Source: a bacterium (GTDB taxonomy: Bacteria; Patescibacteriota; Minisyncoccia; Phycocordibacterales; UBA12079). Taken from it: 64,000 bases of DNA. The notes beneath the pieces are model-generated. The model made no database searches, was not told the origin of the DNA, and worked only from the letters and a program-made list of their open reading frames with translations. Each line of letters starts with the position of its first letter. Positions within the stretch are counted from its first letter, which is position 1. The stretch spans positions 26,727 through 90,726 of the forward strand of contig JAGYLJ010000002.1 of assembly GCA_018401295.1 (NCBI GenBank). Direction: 5' to 3'. Of this stretch, positions 40,086-60,939 are shown piece by piece. The translations under genes and the position numbers were made by a program.

Positions 40086-40171
40086 GAAAAAGAGGTCTGA
40101 CCTCGGTAGTGATAGGACAAAATTTAGTGAATAGAGATAACAGTTATCTTATACAAGAGATCGGACCTCGA
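40086..40171. repeat. ~85-nt conserved hairpin element, copy 1
   Basis: Gap-free alignment to 42595-42680, about 70% identical by eye, including AGTGATA and ACAGTTATCTTA blocks. Confidence 0.75.
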
Positions 40172-42594: not shown

Positions 42595-42680
42595 GAAAAG
42601 ACGTCCGACCTCAGCAGTGATAAAATGACACGAAGTGGCTAAAGGTTACAGTTATCTTAGTTAAGAGGTCGGACGTCGTC
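42595..42680. repeat. ~85-nt conserved hairpin element, copy 2
   Basis: Perfect 13-bp closing stem GACGTCCGACCTC / GAGGTCGGACGTC; homologous to 40086-40171. Confidence 0.75.
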
Positions 42681-42837
42681 TAAATTTCTCTGTCCTAACG
42701 GGCAGTAAAGAAATTTGTGCTCTTTCTTACAGAAACTGTCCACTCATTGGCTCTTTTGTTTCGCTCCAAGCTCACCAAAGAGCTCAATGAGTCTTGCGAA
42801 GCTCCAAGTATTCGCTTCTCACTCGTCCTTGCTCAAT

Positions 42838-42905
42838 GATGTTGATTTTTAAAATGGTAAATAGTGCAGTTAACTGCACTATTTACCATTTTAAAAATCA
42901 ACATC
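42838..42905. repeat. Perfect 68-bp palindrome
   Basis: GATGTTGATTTTTAAAATGGTAAATAGTGCAGTT | AACTGCACTATTTACCATTTTAAAAATCAACATC, checked base by base. Confidence 0.9.
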
Positions 42906-53382: not shown

Positions 53383-54633
53383 TTAGAGATTTAAATTTCC
53401 ATCGGCTTTTAGGCCAACGAGGTCGGTTGCAGTTTGCAACTGACCTTTTTCTTTTAGTTTTAAATATTGGAAATAACCAGCGATACCTATCATAATGGCG
53501 TTATCGGTGGAGAATTCTCTTTCTGGCATTAAAACCTTTAGTTTGGTAATCGGATTACCAAGTGATCGAAAAGCTTGGCGAATTTGAGAGTTGGCTACAA
53601 CGCCACCACCTAAGATTAAGGTTTTTGCGTTAAATTTTTCAAGGGCTTTTTGGGATTTTTTCAAAAGGACTTCTACGACAGCATCTTCAAATTCTTGAGA
53701 GATGGTTTGTTTGGTTTCAAGTGGAATTTCTTTCCAATGATTGGCTTCTTTTAAATTTTTGACCAAATACAAAACAGCGGTTTTGAGACCAGAAAAAGAA
53801 AAATTAAAATCATCGGTATGTATCATCGGTCGTGGTAATTTAATTTCTTGGTTTAATAATTCAGCGCTCGGAGCGCCGAATTTTTCTTCTCGGGCGGTTT
53901 GGGCCAATTTAGATATTTCTGGACCGCCAGGGTAGGGAAGATTCAACATTCGAGCGACTTTATCAAAGGCCTCACCGACAGCATCGTCTAAAGTTTGCCC
54001 AATTTTTTCATACTTCATCCATCCTTTCATTAAAATAAGTTCTGTATGACCACCTGAAATAAGCAATCCAATCATCGGAAATTGAAAATTGGAAATTGAA
54101 AATTCCTTTCCGCTTGCAAAAGATGAAAGGAGATGCCCTTCCATATGATTAACTGGGATGAGTGGTTTTCCCCAAACTAAACTGAGAGTTTTAGCAAAAT
54201 TAATTCCTACCCATAAAGCTGGTTCCAATCCTGGTCCTTGAGTGACTGCAATAGCATCAATTTTAGGAATTTCAATAGTCGGAATATATTCAAGAAATAA
54301 TTTAAGTAATTCAGGCTCTCTCTCTAATATCTTTTCAACTTCAGTCCATTTGGTAATCCGATTACCAAGTGGATTTGATTTGGTAATCGGATTACCAATT
54401 TTTGCCTCGGTGAGAGTTTTGGCGAGAAGGGGTATGAGGTTTTTGGAATGCTCTCGTTTAGCTAAAGCAGGGAAGACACCGCCATATTCTTCGTGAATAT
54501 CAATTTGGGAGATTAAATTATTGGCCAAAATTTTGAATTTAGGCGGATTATTTTCATCACCAAAAGTACCCTCAGCTTCTAAGACACTGATAGCGGTTTC
54601 ATCACAGCTGGTTTCGATAGAAAGGATTTTCAT
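53383..54633 (-). CDS. tsaD: tRNA N6-adenosine threonylcarbamoyltransferase TsaD carrying three in-frame REP insertions
   Basis: GIETSCDET...NHMEGH...SGGHTE...GGGVVAN; peptides GNPITK / GNRITK are encoded by REP copies. Confidence 0.92.
   Translation of the reverse strand: MKILSIETSCDETAISVLEAEGTFGDENNPPKFKILANNLISQIDIHEEYGGVFPALAKREHSKNLIPLLAKTLTEAKIGNPITKSNPLGNRITKWTEVEKILEREPELLKLFLEYIPTIEIPKIDAIAVTQGPGLEPALWVGINFAKTLSLVWGKPLIPVNHMEGHLLSSFASGKEFSISNFQFPMIGLLISGGHTELILMKGWMKYEKIGQTLDDAVGEAFDKVARMLNLPYPGGPEISKLAQTAREEKFGAPSAELLNQEIKLPRPMIHTDDFNFSFSGLKTAVLYLVKNLKEANHWKEIPLETKQTISQEFEDAVVEVLLKKSQKALEKFNAKTLILGGGVVANSQIRQAFRSLGNPITKLKVLMPEREFSTDNAIMIGIAGYFQYLKLKEKGQLQTATDLVGLKADGNLNL
53542..53562. 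repeat. REP-like palindrome inside tsaD (reads LGNPITKL)
   Basis: Exact TTTGGTAATCGGATTACCAAG. Confidence 0.9.
54349..54369. repeat. REP-like palindrome inside tsaD (reads GNRITK)
   Basis: Exact TTTGGTAATCCGATTACCAAG. Confidence 0.9.
54379..54398. repeat. REP-like palindrome inside tsaD (reads GNPITK)
   Basis: Exact TTTGGTAATCGGATTACCAA, 9 nt from the previous copy. Confidence 0.9.
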
Positions 54634-54636
54634 GGG

Positions 54637-55449
54637 TTAAAATGGACTTTTAATTTTCTTAATGGCTGGATTCATAGCATGAGTATAAATTTGGGTTGTT
54701 CTGATGTTAGCATGTCCTAATAATTCTTGCACATATCTAACATCAACTCCGTTTTCTAATAAATGGGTAGCAAAACTGTGTCGCAAAGAATGAAATGTTG
54801 CGTCTTTTTTTATTCCTGATTTTCGTAAGGCATTTTTAAAAACTTTTTGAGCGGTTCGTTCGGTTAATTTTCCACCTCGCTCACTAGTAAAAAAATAATC
54901 ATTGGAATTTTTATTAGCTATTGATTTTTCAACATCTATTATTAACTTTTCCGGAAAAACCGTAATTCTATCTTTATTTCCTTTAGCTCCTTTAATATGA
55001 ATAATTAGTTCCGCTAAATTTATATCTTTAATTTTCAAATTGATAATTTCACTCACGCGCAAACCTCCAGAATATGCTAAAACTATCATTAATTTATGTT
55101 TCTCATTGGAAATCTCCGACAATATTTTCTGAATTTCATCTCGAGACAAAATAATCGGCAATTTATTAGGAGTTTTCGCAAAATGAATATCAATTTTTCC
55201 TTTATATTTCAAAACATTCCAACAAAAAAAATTTATCGCTTGCAAATTTTGATTAGTAGTTTGTGATGACTTCCCTGCATTAATTTTAGAAAGTATATAT
55301 TGCTTAATAAAATTAACATCCACAATTTCAAAATTACTTCTTTTAGCTTTCAGATAATTTTCAACACAAACTGTATATGCTTTTATGGTTTTAGGGCTGT
55401 ATTTTCTCAACTTTAATTCATCTTCTAATTTTTTCAAATAGACGTCCAT
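54637..55449 (-). CDS. Tyrosine recombinase / integrase (XerC/D-like with SAM-like N-domain)
   Basis: R (GLRVSE), HSLRHSFATH, LLGHANIRTTQIYTH; C-terminal ...KIKSPF. Confidence 0.88.
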   Translation of the reverse strand: MDVYLKKLEDELKLRKYSPKTIKAYTVCVENYLKAKRSNFEIVDVNFIKQYILSKINAGKSSQTTNQNLQAINFFCWNVLKYKGKIDIHFAKTPNKLPIILSRDEIQKILSEISNEKHKLMIVLAYSGGLRVSEIINLKIKDINLAELIIHIKGAKGNKDRITVFPEKLIIDVEKSIANKNSNDYFFTSERGGKLTERTAQKVFKNALRKSGIKKDATFHSLRHSFATHLLENGVDVRYVQELLGHANIRTTQIYTHAMNPAIKKIKSPF

Positions 55450-58097: not shown

Positions 58098-58127
58098 TAT
58101 TTTTTTTGAAAAATGAAATTGAATAAA

Positions 58128-58320
58128 AAATATTTTTTGAACTCACTCCACTATGCTCCGTGCCACGCTGTGCTCTCATCCTTTCAGTCGTCGGGGCGTA
58201 TAACAAGGGATATATGGTTCAACCCTCGGCTCGGGCTTCACCCAAATTTTTATTCCACTTCGTTCCAGAAAAACTTCTGATATCCCTAACGTTATGCAAA
58301 ATTTCGCTTCCCGCCAGAGG
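58128..58320. repeat. Non-coding element X2 (attC-like imperfect palindrome 58196-58297)
   Basis: Blocks GCCACGCTGTGCTCTC, GTATAACAAGGGATAT, CCTCGGCTCGG, CCCAAAT and AACGTTATGC are shared with X1. Confidence 0.6.
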
Positions 58321-58518
58321 CGGACAGGCGCTCCATTTTGCATAATGTCCACGCTTAGCAGCGCTGTTCTGCTCAGCAAAGCTTCGCATAACAGCTGCTT
58401 ATCCTAAATTTCTATCGAAAAGAAATCTTTTCTCCAGAAACTTCGGATCAAGCGCGGACATTACATTCAATTGACTCGCCTAAGAAAAATTTATACAAAT
58501 TATACAATTAATAAAAAT

Positions 58519-58941: not shown

Positions 58942-59106
58942 AACTGATTCTTTTTCTTGATATGCAAAAACCTAAACCAAACCTTGCGTCATACTGTCGG
59001 TTGCTTTATAGGATTGCCACATAACAGTGATTATTTGTGATTTTCCTGCCGAAAATTCCCGAACTCTGCTACACAGAACTTCAGATAATTCCGATGTTAA
59101 AAAGTG

Positions 59107-59190
59107 CGGTGGATACAGGACTCGAACCTGTAAGGGCTTTCACCCGACGCATTTCGAATGCGCTGCCTTACCAATTCGGCGCAATCCACC
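59107..59190 (-). tRNA. tRNA-Ser (CGA)
   Basis: Hand-folded: acceptor GGTGGAT/ATCCACC, discriminator G, anticodon loop TTCGAAA, long variable arm GGGTGAAAGCCC, T-arm ACAGGTTCGAGTCCTGT. Confidence 0.88.
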
Positions 59191-59260
59191 GTTTCATGTC
59201 TATAAATCTACCATTTTTTTGCTTTTTTGACAAAAATTGATATAATTTTTGCAGTGTTAT

Positions 59261-59332
59261 GGCCCTATCGTCTAACGGTTAGGACATCGGCTTTTCAAGC
59301 CGGCAATCCGGGTTCGATTCCCGGTAGGGTCA
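59261..59332 (+). tRNA. tRNA-Glu (UUC)
   Basis: GGCCCTATCGTCTAACGGTTAGGAC...; anticodon loop TTTTCAA; T-arm CCGGGTTCGATTCCCGG. Confidence 0.9.
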
Positions 59333-59436
59333 CAAAACGTTAAGAAAAAGTAAACCGCTTTACTTTTTTGGTTTTGTGGAGGCGGAGCGATGTTTTTGCT
59401 TCCACCCAGAAGCAAAAACCGCGAGCCGTGGATAAA

Positions 59437-59520
59437 AAACAAACTGCTTTGTTTTTTATCCGGTTTTTGCACAGCAAAAAATTTCCTTTATTGAGCAAAG
59501 CGAAATAGGAAATAGGCGGG
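59437..59520 (+). repeat. Three-hairpin module, copy A (105 nt downstream of tRNA-Glu)
   Basis: About 80% identical by eye to 60519-60612, with compensatory stem changes. Confidence 0.75.
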
Positions 59521-59671
59521 TCGACAAGTACTTAGACTTTTAGAATTCGTAAGAATTTTAAAAGACTTAGTAACTTGTGACCACGTAAAATCTGCGTGCG
59601 TAGCATTCCATATAACTTAACCAAAAAACCAAAGCATTAGTTTTGGTTTTTTATATTTTAGTAAAGGAACT

Positions 59672-60271
59672 ATGGATAAAAAAACTATAGATACTTACAA
59701 CAAAATGGCTAAAGAATATGACGAGGAAACAATCGGTTTTTGGAAAGAATTTCCTGATACCATTATTACTAAATTTTGCGAGAAAATGGAGGGAGATAAA
59801 AAAGTGTTAGACATTGGAAGTGGTCCTGGCCGAGATGGACTTTTATTGAAAGAAAGGGGATTAGATGTTGTTTGTTTAGATGCTTCATCAGAAATGGTAA
59901 AATTATGTGAGAACAAGGGGTTGGATTCAATTGAAGGAGATTTTTTGGATTTGCCTTTTGAAGATAGTACTTTTGATGGGGTTTGGTCATACACTTCTCT
60001 TTTACATGTACAGAAAAAGGAGATGAACAAAGCTTTATCTGAAGTTAGAAGGGTTTTAAAAAAAGACGGTATTTTTGGTTTAGGTTTAATAGAAGGGAAT
60101 AAGGAACTTTATCGTGAAAGTTCTGGGGTTGGAGAATTGAGATGGTTCGCTTTTTATCTCAGAGAAGAAATAGAAAAGTTATTAGAAGATCAGGGCTTTG
60201 TTGTTGAATATTTTGAAGATTTTACACCTAGTTCAAAAAAATATTTGAATTATATTTTGAGAAAAATTTAA
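59672..60271 (+). CDS. Class I SAM-dependent methyltransferase
   Basis: VLDIGSGPGRD motif I. Confidence 0.85.
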   Translation: MDKKTIDTYNKMAKEYDEETIGFWKEFPDTIITKFCEKMEGDKKVLDIGSGPGRDGLLLKERGLDVVCLDASSEMVKLCENKGLDSIEGDFLDLPFEDSTFDGVWSYTSLLHVQKKEMNKALSEVRRVLKKDGIFGLGLIEGNKELYRESSGVGELRWFAFYLREEIEKLLEDQGFVVEYFEDFTPSSKKYLNYILRKI

Positions 60272-60334: not shown

Positions 60335-60407
60335 GGGCGGTTAGCTCAGTTGGTAGAGCGCTACATTGACGTTGTAGATGTCACAGGTTCGAATCCTGTA
60401 TCGCCCA
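60335..60407 (+). tRNA. tRNA-Val (GAC)
   Basis: GGGCGGTTAGCTCAGTTGGTAGAGC...; anticodon loop TTGACGT; T-arm ACAGGTTCGAATCCTGT. Confidence 0.9.
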
Positions 60408-60427
60408 CAAATTTGAGACGAAGTGAA

Positions 60428-60900
60428 AAATTGGTGGGCGATAAGTAAGCCAATTGCTTGGCTTACGTCAGGATTCGAAAGTCGGAATATATTGCGAGCG
60501 ATAGCGAGTAATAATGAGACGGGGATAAAAAACAAACTACTTTGTTTTTTATCCGATTTTTCTGAAAGAGAAAATTTCTTATATCGAGCGAAGCGAGATA
60601 GGAAATAGGAGGACGCGAACACTTAATAGATTTCGAGCGAAGCGAAGAAATCTATTTAGTGATTTGTGATCGAATCCTGACTGGTTTATATTTGCCCACA
60701 AAATCTTAAGTCCTAAAGCGTTAGCTTTGAGACTTTTGATTTTGTCGTGACGATACAGGGTTCGAACCGAGCGAATATATTTTTCTGTAGCGAAGCGAAA
60801 GAAAAATTTGAGAGAGCGGAGGTCAAGGGATTGAGATATTTTTGGAGCGAAGCGAACAAAAATATCCATGAGAGTGACCGAATCCTATTTCCACCCCACC
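60428..60900. repeat. Array of degenerate tRNA-Val 3'-end copies in alternating orientation, interleaved with GAGCGAAGCGA-loop hairpins
   Basis: Inverted copies at 60428-60478 and 60738-60770; direct copies at 60661-60700 and 60868-60900. Hairpins at 60574-60606, 60625-60656, 60779-60807 and 60835-60866. Confidence 0.7.
60519..60612 (+). repeat. Three-hairpin module, copy B (112 nt downstream of tRNA-Val)
   Basis: GGATAAAAAACAAACTACTTTGTTTTTTATCC plus two further hairpins, homologous to copy A. Confidence 0.75.
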
Positions 60901-60939
60901 TATTTGCGCAGTTTTCAAGATAAGTTATAATATCTTTAT

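Follow-up and report, generated by a model that had tools for sequence, protein, structure and literature searches.

The closest described counterpart of the hairpin tips considered here is the DNA mini-hairpin d(GCGNAGC) / d(GCGNNAGC), described by Hirao and co-workers and reviewed in PMC13037366. Its thermal and nuclease stability is exceptional, and r(GCGAAAGC) melts at 39 °C, versus 76.5 °C for the DNA version (PMC13037366). Natural mini-hairpins have been reported at the single-strand replication start sites of phages G4, St-1, and α3, at ssiA, and in N4 hairpin promoters. For the DNA surrounding the tips, the nearest comparisons are integrative elements of tRNA genes, with their decayed derivatives (CIMEs) and tandem accretion (PMC5704250), and phage Ms6, whose attB lies in the T-loop (PMC1762012). 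Short hairpin units are further known as repetitive hairpin elements, REPs, and MITE-like palindromic repeats, such as the RHEs of sponge mitochondria (PMC2800124).

We analyzed a window of 64,000 nt of patescibacterial DNA together with related loci, designated L and a number. A preliminary description of the window had reported five hairpins with one shared 11-nt loop, and all five are present on the + strand. A sixth, at 60491-60512, is missing from that description and has a GAGCGAAGCGA-type tip like the other five.

59481..59513, + strand: hairpin H0, tip GAGCAAAGCGA, a degenerate cap with an AAA triloop on an imperfect stem
59597..59605, + strand: mini-hairpin TGC-GTA-GCA, with orthologs GC-AAA-GC (L132) and GC-GAA-GC (L124)
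60491..60512, + strand: sixth capped hairpin (P2), ATTGC-GAGCGATAGCGA-GTAAT
60574..60606, + strand: hairpin H1, cap GAGCGAAGCGA on an imperfect stem (one G·T pair, 2-nt bulge)
60625..60656, + strand: hairpin H2, perfect 10-bp stem, 14 pairs with one mismatch when extended
60779..60807, + strand: hairpin H3, 8 bp, tip GTAGCGAAGCGAA, cap (GT)AGCGAAGCGAA
60835..60866, + strand: hairpin H4, perfect 10-bp stem plus cap

The shared 11-mer had been taken for an open, displayed loop of invariant sequence. It is instead a closed, self-folding cap, GA-GC-GNA-GC-GA, in which two tandem G·A pairs clamp a GCGNAGC mini-hairpin made of two G-C pairs and a GNA triloop. Nor is it invariant: orthologous hairpins in L130 bear other tips, and the variants obey the GNA rule. 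Four of the five hairpins carry GC-GAA-GC, and the GC-GATA-GC at 60498-60505 corresponds to GCGATAGC, a listed DNA mini-hairpin (PMC13037366, Table 1); the GC-AAA-GC of H0 is non-conforming. Cap variants among paralogs differ only in the middle base of the triloop (GCA, GGA, and GTA only). At orthologous sites the inner cap pairs covary, as GC/GC versus CT/AG at P2 (tips GA-CT-GAA-AG-AA in L124 and GA-CT-GAA-AG-GA in L136) and as AC-GAA-GT at 58257-63 of the window versus GC-GTA-GC in L132. Such AC-GAA-GT caps, with other closing pairs, lie at 60415-60426 and, on the minus strand, at 58257-63. The caps sit on the G-rich strand.

The same rule governs tips far from this locus. On viral contigs, flanks complementary over at least 4 bp accompanied 79 of 351 sites with a GAA triloop (23%) and 22 of 168 with GCA (13%), versus 0 of 43 with AGA and 0 of 65 with AAG; the cap thus occurs on unrelated stems across viral contigs only with a GNA triloop. 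This pattern agrees with the published rule that only GNA triloops make the DNA mini-hairpin (PMC13037366). A local enrichment test for GNA among all 3-bp triloop hairpins (15.5% versus 10.7%) was too noisy for use. In our control scans the tip signature is widespread and rule abiding, and capped tips on unrelated stems were found in many phyla, archaea, and viruses, so the motif has relatives outside the window. The claim that GCGAAGC forms a very stable DNA mini-hairpin is consistent with the literature; nearest-neighbor folding does not model this stability, which for the cap considered here rests on PMC13037366. The 11-mer itself appears in the literature only in primers and unrelated uses. 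The cap thus shares its core GCGAAGC with the known mini-hairpin, as well as a triloop that varies only in its middle base and whose non-GNA versions were never tips on the viral contigs. It differs in being extended by a tandem G·A clamp on long variable stems, in forming arrays inside chromosomal insertions, and in including one copy with a non-GNA triloop.

The exact 11-mer occurs three times in the window, all inside 270 nt, and one-mismatch versions occur only at the remaining two of the five hairpins. GCGAAGC is found six times, versus 1.62 expected, a count reached in 0 of 100 shuffles. Among the heptamers reported as isolated, the copy at 58381-87 stands, and the + strand copy is present but at 42796-42802, not 42797-42803, where it belongs to a stem and not a tip. 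The statement that every stem differs applies to H2, whose stem is unrelated to the rest, but not to two pairs of paralogs: H0 and H1 belong to a 97-nt repeat (82% identity), and H3 and H4 are 81% alike across 27 nt. Part of the sharing of tips is explained by this paralogy.

The hairpins lie in lineage-specific, ORF-less insertions of about 200 to 290 bp at tRNA-Val and tRNA-Glu. The tRNA-Val locus has the following layout.

60335..60408, + strand: tRNA-Val(gac), intact (ARAGORN, Rfam), target and left boundary of the insertions
60409..60699, + strand: element 1, about 290 bp without a conserved ORF, missing from all relatives examined
60434..60479, + strand: inverted copy of the tRNA-Val 3' end, GTGGGCGATA ... 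CAGGATTCGAA, matching Val 65-74 and 54-64 in reverse and interrupted by a 25-nt hairpin at 60445-60466
60516..60612, + strand: 97-nt two-hairpin unit, copy 2, holding a terminator-like hairpin (60523-60554) and H1
60604..60675, + strand: P3 module of element 1 (model R1, 67.3 bits), with H2 as its variable apical part
60670..60699, + strand: tRNA-Val 3' end repeated in direct orientation, starting at the T-loop: TCGAATCCTGAC, an 11-nt insert, then GCCCACA; the displaced tRNA end at the junction of elements 1 and 2
60698..60745, + strand: spacer hairpin in element 2, showing compensatory changes versus L130
60700..60899, + strand: element 2; its roughly 200 bp are homologous to L130 5755-5950 (alignment A1)
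60751..60768, + strand: tRNA-Val T-arm and acceptor 3' strand in inverted orientation (94%; E = 0.013)
60879..60899, + strand: decayed copy of the tRNA-Val 3' end, the original gene end, adjoining the ancestral downstream flank (alignment A4)

Synteny via the DUF389 gene found orthologous loci, which have the same three tRNAs as the window upstream of the matching DUF389 gene; a metagenome scan with DUF389 gave ten loci only, and synteny via the methyltransferase gene was not conserved. tRNA-Val and the DUF389 gene lie 531 nt apart in the window and 246 nt apart in L130, and only 41 to 47 nt separate them in L128, L132, and L134 to L136, with L140 likewise. As judged from these alignments, and compared with close relatives, the window carries inserted DNA between tRNA-Val and the gene that follows. 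The insert is built of two units in tandem, and each closes with a repeat of the tRNA 3' end beginning in the T-loop; of these repeats the outermost is the former gene end, and on the left a complete tRNA has been restored. Positions 60879-60899 and their flank align with the tRNA-Val 3' end and flank of four relatives, and the junction, read from the sequence, is CGA|ATCC in the T-loop. Each unit also holds an inverted copy of the tRNA segment, and tRNA-Val fragments in the two orientations lie at 60670-79, 60879-86, 60434-43, 60469-79, and 60751-68. ORFs of at least 40 aa inside the insertions are not conserved, and one 58-aa frame corresponds to a 4-codon frame in L130. At the position of H3, L130 shows GCGAAGC and GAAGCAAAGCGAAG as well, together with an unrelated stem, and it keeps the stem of H4 with a different tip (GACCCACATTGGGTGGGGA).

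A related arrangement follows tRNA-Glu, and a further related stretch lies on the - strand.

58098..58470, - strand: hairpin-rich non-coding stretch, homologous to the L132 DNA after its tRNA-Glu element, holding GCGAAGC (58381-87) and AC-GAA-GT (58257-63)
59261..59333, + strand: tRNA-Glu(ttc), anchor of the first non-coding stretch (ARAGORN, Rfam)
59345..59368, + strand: terminator-like spacer hairpin just after tRNA-Glu, with a recurrent loop AAACCGCTTT, present also in L132; it sits in a palindrome, CACAAAAC...GTTTTGTG, that includes the last tRNA bases
59423..59519, + strand: copy 1 of the 97-nt two-hairpin unit, 82% identical to copy 2
59513..59586, + strand: conserved P3 module, ..GGCGGGTCGACAAGTACTTAG-variable hairpin-CTTAGTAACTTGTGACC (model R1, 70.2 bits)

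Copy 1 of the 97-nt unit is absent at the orthologous position in L132 and is therefore a nested insertion. Among other Patescibacteria, the same insertion design follows tRNA-Glu in L124 and L132, tRNA-Glu and tRNA-Ser in L136/L137, and, in two tandem copies, tRNA-Gly in Yonathbacteria L063; in L063 and L136, too, the gene is restored and its 3' segment directly repeated around the insert. Each copy of the element matches its own tRNA, the junction falls in the T-loop every time, and the duplicated segment, 18 to 30 nt long, is always a tRNA gene end. All elements and caps are oriented like the adjacent tRNA. The association of hairpins with tRNA genes and recombination scars holds locally, but outside the lineage a tRNA gene accompanied the motif at only 4 of the 120 genome loci and none of the 120 viral loci, which shows no general link. 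Partial copies of tRNA 5' ends lie upstream of tRNAs in L132, L136, L137, and L124; such copies are unusual for tRNA-targeting integrases and were counted against a mobile element, as was the inverted tRNA copy, which has no role in classical double-stranded att sites.

The tRNA-Val locus resembles a CIME in several respects. The insert sits between an intact tRNA and a displaced partial 3' end, the junction is in the T-loop, and the units are in tandem with the older copies more decayed. The flanking tRNA repeats accompany a restored gene, relatives have the empty site, and integration and transfer genes are absent. CIMEs differ in that the units here are just 200 to 290 bp, yet are conserved in several lineages, and in the inverted target copy, the covarying hairpin modules, the versions with 5'-end duplication, and a larger parent, which was not found. 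No larger relative or autonomous parent element was found among the loci compared and the viral contigs, and the small size is conserved; neither an element-linked integrase nor a circular or excised form was found.

We consider it somewhat better than an even bet (about 0.55) that the hairpins belong, as modules, to miniature non-coding elements, about 200 to 290 bp long, inserted in tRNA gene ends of a patescibacterial tRNA-Ser/Glu/Val cluster, and that a folded single strand of these would use the cap as a folding nucleator. Site-specific recombination at the T-loop would have brought the units in, and they would have accumulated as the restored site was used again and again; because they encode nothing, they were presumably moved in trans. 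The hairpins would act as a single strand, with DNA judged more likely than RNA, and the cap would supply a very stable folding nucleus for AT-rich stems. Stems may have been kept complementary by compensatory change or by template switching within the hairpin, and the cap may have been kept or swapped as a cassette. If this is true, the combination of same tip and different stems is explained by known nucleic acid chemistry and not by an unknown reader protein, and a family of tiny tRNA-end insertions, missed by annotation pipelines and Rfam, has been shaping tRNA clusters in genome-reduced Patescibacteria. GA-GC-GNA-GC-GA at hairpin tips would then be a signature for finding folded single-strand sites (origins, hairpin promoters, and recombination sites) in genomes and viruses, and our control scans could be extended to a genome-wide census of it.

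The internal modules bear directly on this reading. In alignment they are conserved across lineages, and their covariation is that of a folded strand running in the direction of the tRNA. In the P3 module, compared across few sequences (6 to 7 copies), 92.6% of cells are paired and 10 of 16 pairs have changed on both sides, a result equaled in 0 of 500 shuffles; 8 cells are G·U and none are A·C. The preliminary description had suggested a structure-specific recognition element of RNA or single-stranded DNA, and the covariation supports selection on the hairpins to fold in single-stranded form. The RNA fold of 60409-60930 has a z score of -10.45, with the + strand folding 40 kcal/mol better than the - strand and exceeding its shuffles by 59 versus 44 kcal/mol. 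An asymmetry limited to G·U and a + strand that folds more strongly are compatible with RNA and single-stranded DNA alike.

These last properties are also what structured non-coding RNA genes, made with or next to the tRNAs, would show. The inverted and direct tRNA-end copies would pair as a terminal helix that mimics the acceptor/T-arm minihelix and is trimmed by tRNA-processing enzymes, and the GA-clamped caps would make protein or tertiary contacts, like a K-loop. In a K-turn or K-loop, tandem sheared G·A pairs adjoin a helix next to a 3-nt bulge or loop and are bound by an L7Ae-type protein; the cap presumably resembles it in allowing tandem G·A pairs, but the 3-nt bulge is absent. The predicted fold indeed pairs 60467-78 with 60672-83 and GGUGGG with CCCACC, one orthologous tip in L132 is a GNRA tetraloop (C-GCAA-G), and the orientation shared with the adjacent tRNA would follow, but directional integration would produce that orientation as well. 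Against RNA genes, the spacer hairpin just 3' of each tRNA looks terminator-like, and a promoter of the elements' own is not convincing. RNA-type caps (GNRA and UNCG) are not the rule, and the outermost tRNA-end copy is an ancestral gene end and not a designed RNA terminus. In Rfam 15, only the tRNAs reach the gathering score, with no match at E <= 10 in 59334-59670 or 60409-60930. The cap, moreover, obeys the DNA mini-hairpin rule, and RNA versions are far less stable (PMC13037366). We regard RNA genes as unlikely, although they are the alternative that best survives.

It is likewise improbable that the insertion reading extends to an undescribed family of ORF-less mobile elements in Patescibacteria that targets tRNA T-loops, in which the target is carried in direct and in inverted form, the two folding within one DNA strand into a recombination substrate, as for CTX phage or integron cassettes, and in which the universal GA-clamped GNA cap is both the folding nucleus and a general, uncatalogued signature of single-stranded-DNA sites in bacteria, archaea, and viruses. 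The candidate trans-acting enzyme is a single gene.

54637..55449, - strand: 270-aa Xer-type tyrosine recombinase, the sole candidate trans-acting enzyme in the window

An ordinary enzyme of the Xer type, it is next to tsaD, 5 kb from the elements, and its best model is XerA; its TIGR02249 score is 213 bits versus a cut-off of 265, and it lacks the size of IntI. Its distance from the elements was counted against a mobile element, as were the AAA triloop at 59495 and the failure to find the P3 module on viral contigs, where searches gave 0 matches and then 7 chance matches in coding DNA. N4-type hairpin promoters were rejected as an account of the viral capped hairpins; L205 showed no N4-like similarity.

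A more doubtful proposal, raised in part in the preliminary description, is that the constant 11-mer on variable stems is a recognition element for a protein (the nearby recombinase, a nuclease, or an RNA-processing enzyme), with the direct and inverted tRNA copies forming a folded single-strand site for recombination, as integron attC and the XerCD-dependent CTX phage attP do. In those systems, as here, target-like sequence and its inverted copy lie tens of nt apart and can fold duplex-like, and units form tandem arrays. Here the tRNA end, spacer, and inverted copy can make long hairpins (perfect over 20 nt in L130 and a perfect palindrome in L136), the recombinase belongs to the XerA / integron-integrase group, and the cap is kept at some orthologous positions. 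Against this, other orthologous hairpins bear unrelated tips, and the cap is constrained at structural positions only; since the stems that bear it in many phyla, archaea, and viruses are unrelated, no lineage-specific protein explains it. The R'/R'' core motifs of attC (RYYYAAC / GTTRRRY) and a dif-like target are absent on reading the sequence, the target being a tRNA T-loop, not attI or dif, with a duplicated segment of 18 to 30 nt. The recombinase falls below the integron-integrase cut-off and differs in size, and the window shows no adjacent integron integrase.

Least probable of all is that the locus holds neither element nor function and is a site prone to recombination, with tRNA genes that underwent partial duplication, inversion, and decay, with palindromes that template switching during replication enlarged and kept perfect, and with a cap that recurs only via local hairpin copying; the many tRNA fragments in both orientations, the H0/H1 and H3/H4 paralogy, a tandem 185-bp duplication in L137, a Ser-Glu segment inverted between relatives, and perfect palindromes that take in non-tRNA flank in L136 would suit it, but modules with compensatory changes are kept across distant lineages and different tRNAs (the window, L124, L132, L136, and Yonathbacteria L063), and each copy fits its own tRNA with the junction always in the T-loop.

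Among other known repeats, REPs and MITE-like units share with the miniature tRNA-end insertions a short non-coding hairpin format, nested insertion (the 97-nt unit), and presence or absence between relatives; those repeats share their stems, whereas here the stems differ and the tip is shared, short target duplications are lacking, and the tie to tRNA ends is specific. A MITE of a DDE transposon was rejected, the ends being inverted copies of the tRNA segment and the duplication 18 to 30 nt, not 2 to 10 bp. A CRISPR array was rejected as well; only the 11-mer is shared, at spacings of 49, 153, and 57 nt, without repeat-spacer structure. Intrinsic terminators do not account for the capped hairpins, none of which was called or has a T tail (only the GGAT..ATCC hairpins of the 97-nt unit were called); elsewhere, T-rich tails followed 2 of 33 long-stem capped hairpins. 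A tRNA with an intron or a split T-loop was rejected, since neither a D arm nor an anticodon arm is present, and the cores of hammerhead and K-turn did not fit when read by eye. Finally, a tmRNA or tRNA-like RNA at 60432-60899 was rejected, with nothing from ARAGORN or Rfam, no G3·U pair, and no plausible tag; its tmRNA-like start, GGTGGGCGAU..GGAUUCGA, is due to the inverted copy of the tRNA-Val 3' end.

The window is AT-rich (33.6% G+C), with proteins whose homologues are labelled Patescibacteria or Parcubacteria, and its source is a Patescibacteria-type genome. All five hairpins of the preliminary description are present at their positions, and the observation as a whole is real and above chance. 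Three exact copies of the 11-mer GAGCGAAGCGA exist, on the + strand and all inside 60586-60855, and its two one-mismatch versions are the remaining two hairpins of the five. GCGAAGC was observed 6 times versus 1.62 expected, a count reached in 0 of 100 shuffles. Two pairs are paralogues: 59481-59513 and 60574-60606 lie inside a 97-nt repeat of 82% identity, and 60779-60807 and 60835-60866 are 81% alike across 27 nt. Further caps, as we call the shared hairpin tip, were found in the window.

Additional caps
60491-60512, sixth capped hairpin (P2), ATTGC-GAGCGATAGCGA-GTAAT
60415-60426, related cap with other closing pairs, AC-GAA-GT
58257-63, minus strand, related cap with other closing pairs, AC-GAA-GT

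Parsed as GA-GC-GAA-GC-GA, the 11-mer is able to fold back and close: a GAA triloop is capped by two G-C pairs, and a 5'-GA/3'-AG tandem mismatch connects these to the stem. The inner pairs are drawn by the folding program. At its core stands GCGAAGC, the "mini-hairpin" described by Hirao and co-workers, whose review gives melting temperatures of 76.5 °C for d(GCGAAGC), 71 °C for the likewise stable GCGATAGC and just 39 °C for the RNA version r(GCGAAAGC), and reports that GNA alone among all 64 triloops forms the structure (PMC13037366). In nature, mini-hairpins occur at single-strand replication start sites and in hairpin promoters (PMC13037366).

The cap had been described as invariant, yet orthologous hairpins in a relative (L130) carry other tips. 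There, 60835-60866 retains its stem under the tip GACCCACATTGGGTGGGGA, and at the site of 60779-60807 the stem is unrelated and bears GCGAAGC and GAAGCAAAGCGAAG. Other orthologous sites retain the cap with covarying inner pairs: the P2 cap GA-GC-GATA-GC-GA corresponds to GA-CT-GAA-AG-AA/GA, and in region C, a related minus-strand non-coding stretch (58098-58470), AC-GAA-GT of the window is GC-GTA-GC in L132. Because tips are swapped and inner pairs covary, the constraint is on cap structure, and caps are exchangeable cassettes.

To place the cap outside this lineage, we scanned reference genomes and, separately, viral contigs for two caps 25-55 nt apart. At least 120 such stretches were found in the genomes, across many bacterial phyla and archaea, and at least 120 in the viral contigs. 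Perfectly complementary flanks of at least 4 bp accompany 17% of the genome occurrences (28/120 loci among the matches listed) and 23% of the viral ones (42/120 loci among the matches listed); the chance rate is estimated at under 1%. Several viral contigs have neighbouring hairpins with the same cap and different perfect stems of 10-15 bp. Control triloops had the base composition of the GAA cap, with tips counted where flanks of at least 4 bp are complementary.

Two-cap stretches and tips by triloop
GAA, at least 120 stretches, tips 79/351 among the matches listed
GCA, 49 stretches, tips 22/168
AGA, 17 stretches, tips 0/43
AAG, 28 stretches, tips 0/65

Variation among paralogous caps is confined to the middle triloop base. 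Controls and paralogues together follow precisely the rule of the DNA mini-hairpin. No general link between the cap and tRNA genes was seen (4/120 genome and 0/120 viral loci among the matches listed). T-rich tails in just 2 of 33 viral capped hairpins rule these out as terminators.

A short repeat, GTCA-YYSY-GAGCGAAGCGA(A)-RSRR-TC, was noted in several groups, among them Chloroflexota, Planctomycetota, Acidobacteriota and Firmicutes (L008, L019, L020, L026, L037, L038, L041, L100-L102, L108 and L118), with stems such as ATTGC/GCAAT, ATCCT/AGGAT and ATTCT/AGAAT. Tandem arrays of it are frequent, one of which (L038) stops 51 nt upstream of a tRNA; no Rfam family covering it was found. Viral L191, L193, L205, L213 and L220 contain paired hairpins with cap GAGCGAAGCGA(A) and differing perfect 10-15 bp stems; the L220 pair has 10 of 15 positions in common, with fully compensated changes.

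In the window, the non-coding DNA bearing the hairpins adjoins two tRNA genes and folds far better than shuffles (z = -9.75 for 59334-59670, z = -10.45 for 60409-60930). Neither stretch matches an Rfam family, even at E <= 10. Relatives with DUF389 proteins 79-85% identical have the same downstream gene order and three tRNAs. The distance from tRNA-Val to the DUF389 gene is 41-47 nt in L128, L132, L134-136 and L140, 246 nt in L130 and 531 nt in the window; since the gap is much shorter in relatives, 60409-60899 is inserted DNA. Short-match comparison with tRNA-Val, combined with alignments, divides the insertion into two tandem units.

tRNA genes and elements
59261-59333, tRNA-Glu, adjoining hairpin-bearing non-coding DNA
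60335-60408, tRNA-Val, adjoining hairpin-bearing non-coding DNA
60409-60699, element 1, in the window alone among the loci compared
60434-60479, inverted tRNA copy of element 1, interrupted by a 25-nt hairpin
60700-60899, element 2, homologous to L130 5755-5950
60751-60768, inverted tRNA copy of element 2

At the end of element 2 lies a decayed tRNA 3' end copy that begins in the T-loop (CGAATCCTATTTCCACCCCACC). This copy is the original gene end, because the flank beyond it is that found downstream of the intact tRNA in relatives. Element 1 ends in a further copy (TCGAATCCTGAC..GCCCACA), restoring the junction GCCCACAAAATC seen in L130, and both elements contain this tRNA segment once more in inverted orientation. 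The same design follows tRNA-Gly, as two tandem units, in a Yonathbacteria genome (L063), tRNA-Glu in L136/L137, where a 25-nt hairpin again interrupts the inverted copy, and tRNA-Ser in L136; a reduced form follows tRNA-Glu in L124 and L132. In every case the copies match their own adjacent tRNA, and on the right the junction is always ..GTGAYCGA/T-loop.

This four-part pattern of intact gene, insert, displaced 3' end and tandem units with older outer copies is the signature of site-specific tRNA-gene integration and of renewed integration events at the site once rebuilt. Phage Ms6 is known to have a T-loop attB (PMC1762012), and the window elements also join in the T-loop. Decayed elements that retain att sites alone are described as CIMEs, as is tandem accretion (PMC5704250). 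The window's sole recombinase (54637-55449) is Xer-type, scoring just over the XerA cut-off and under that for integron integrases.

Partial tRNA 5' end copies (11-21 nt) also occur upstream of intact tRNAs, bracketing hairpin-rich inserts.

Inserts with partial tRNA 5' end copies
L132 4590-4735, with 19-nt terminal inverted repeats
L130 5570-5680
L136 718-905
L137 1066-1435, the unit tandemly duplicated (185 bp)

A conserved folded module of ~75 nt (P3; ..GGCGGGGTCGAGAGTACTTAG-hairpin-CTTAGTAACTCGTGACCGA) is common to several of these loci.

P3 module copies
Window 59513-59586
Window 60604-60675
L124, L132, L136 (two copies) and L063

Across six aligned sequences, 92.6% of cells are paired and 10 of 16 pairs show both-side changes, matched by no shuffle. 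There are eight G·U and zero A·C cells; the folding strand is therefore that with tRNA polarity. Hairpin 60625-60656 is the variable top of this module, and its counterparts in other copies have different tips. The 97-nt unit holding hairpins 59481-59513 and 60574-60606 is missing from the equivalent positions in L132, L124 and L063 and present in another setting in L136/L137, and is thus a nested insert.

The preliminary description was partly right to expect a single-stranded element, specific in structure and close to scars of recombination. A better explanation of what it took for an invariant loop, read by a protein, is a known hyperstable cap carried by modules of small tRNA-end insertions. 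We propose that the units would be non-autonomous integrative elements, moved in trans and acting in folded single-strand form. The cap could provide a fast, very stable nucleus that enables AT-rich stems to fold, and stem complementarity might be maintained by compensatory change or by template switching within the hairpin. Orientation, the G·U asymmetry and the fact that the + strand folds better would suit hairpins acting as RNA equally well. DNA is nonetheless favoured as the acting strand, because the cap follows the DNA rule and its RNA form is weak, the hairpin right behind each tRNA looks terminator-like, and the strand on which caps sit is the G-rich one, which presumably serves as lagging-strand template. 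The chemistry of the cap is known. The family of tRNA-end elements and how widely caps are used are apparently undescribed in the literature and Rfam, as far as searched.

Several minor observations concern the tRNA region. The segment tRNA-Ser/shared promoter block/tRNA-Glu (59106-59333) is inverted between two groups, the window with L130, L136 and L137 versus L128, L132 and L140. The tRNA-Ser(cga) of the window (59106-59190, minus strand) is quite unlike that of relatives, and in the T-arm and the 3' strand of the acceptor it shares 95% identity with tRNA-Val; it may be chimeric, its gene end supplied by recombination. An arrangement of tRNA-Glu, then a structured element, then a class I SAM methyltransferase is shared by the window (59334-60271) and L124 (4730-5606) and not present in closer relatives. 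The methyltransferases are only 66% identical, and the gene may be cargo of an insertion at tRNA-Glu. Independent Logan assemblies of SRR14300308 (L122, L001) break at ~59433, 60408 and 60622, consistent with palindromes or repeats disturbing assembly. A second recurrent tip, (C)AAACTGCTTTG / CCAACTGCTTGG, occurs on different stems, including spacer hairpins right after tRNAs.

Second recurrent tip
Window 59345-59368, 59430-59461 and 60523-60554
L124 4520-4555 and 4745-4790
L132 4300-4335

Elsewhere in the window, two similar long intergenic hairpins, 40094-40170 and 42597-42676 (..CCGACCTC..AGTGATA..ACAGTTATCTTA..GAGGTCGG..), have no Rfam match at gathering score and may represent a conserved motif. 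A structured intergenic region of 450 nt contains a palindrome of 32 bp, perfect and centred on TTAA (42838-42905), and GCGAAGC inside a stem (42796-42802). The palindrome TTTGGTAATC(C/G)GATTACCAAA has several copies (30-50, 535-594, 54350-54398), some in the tsaD gene region.
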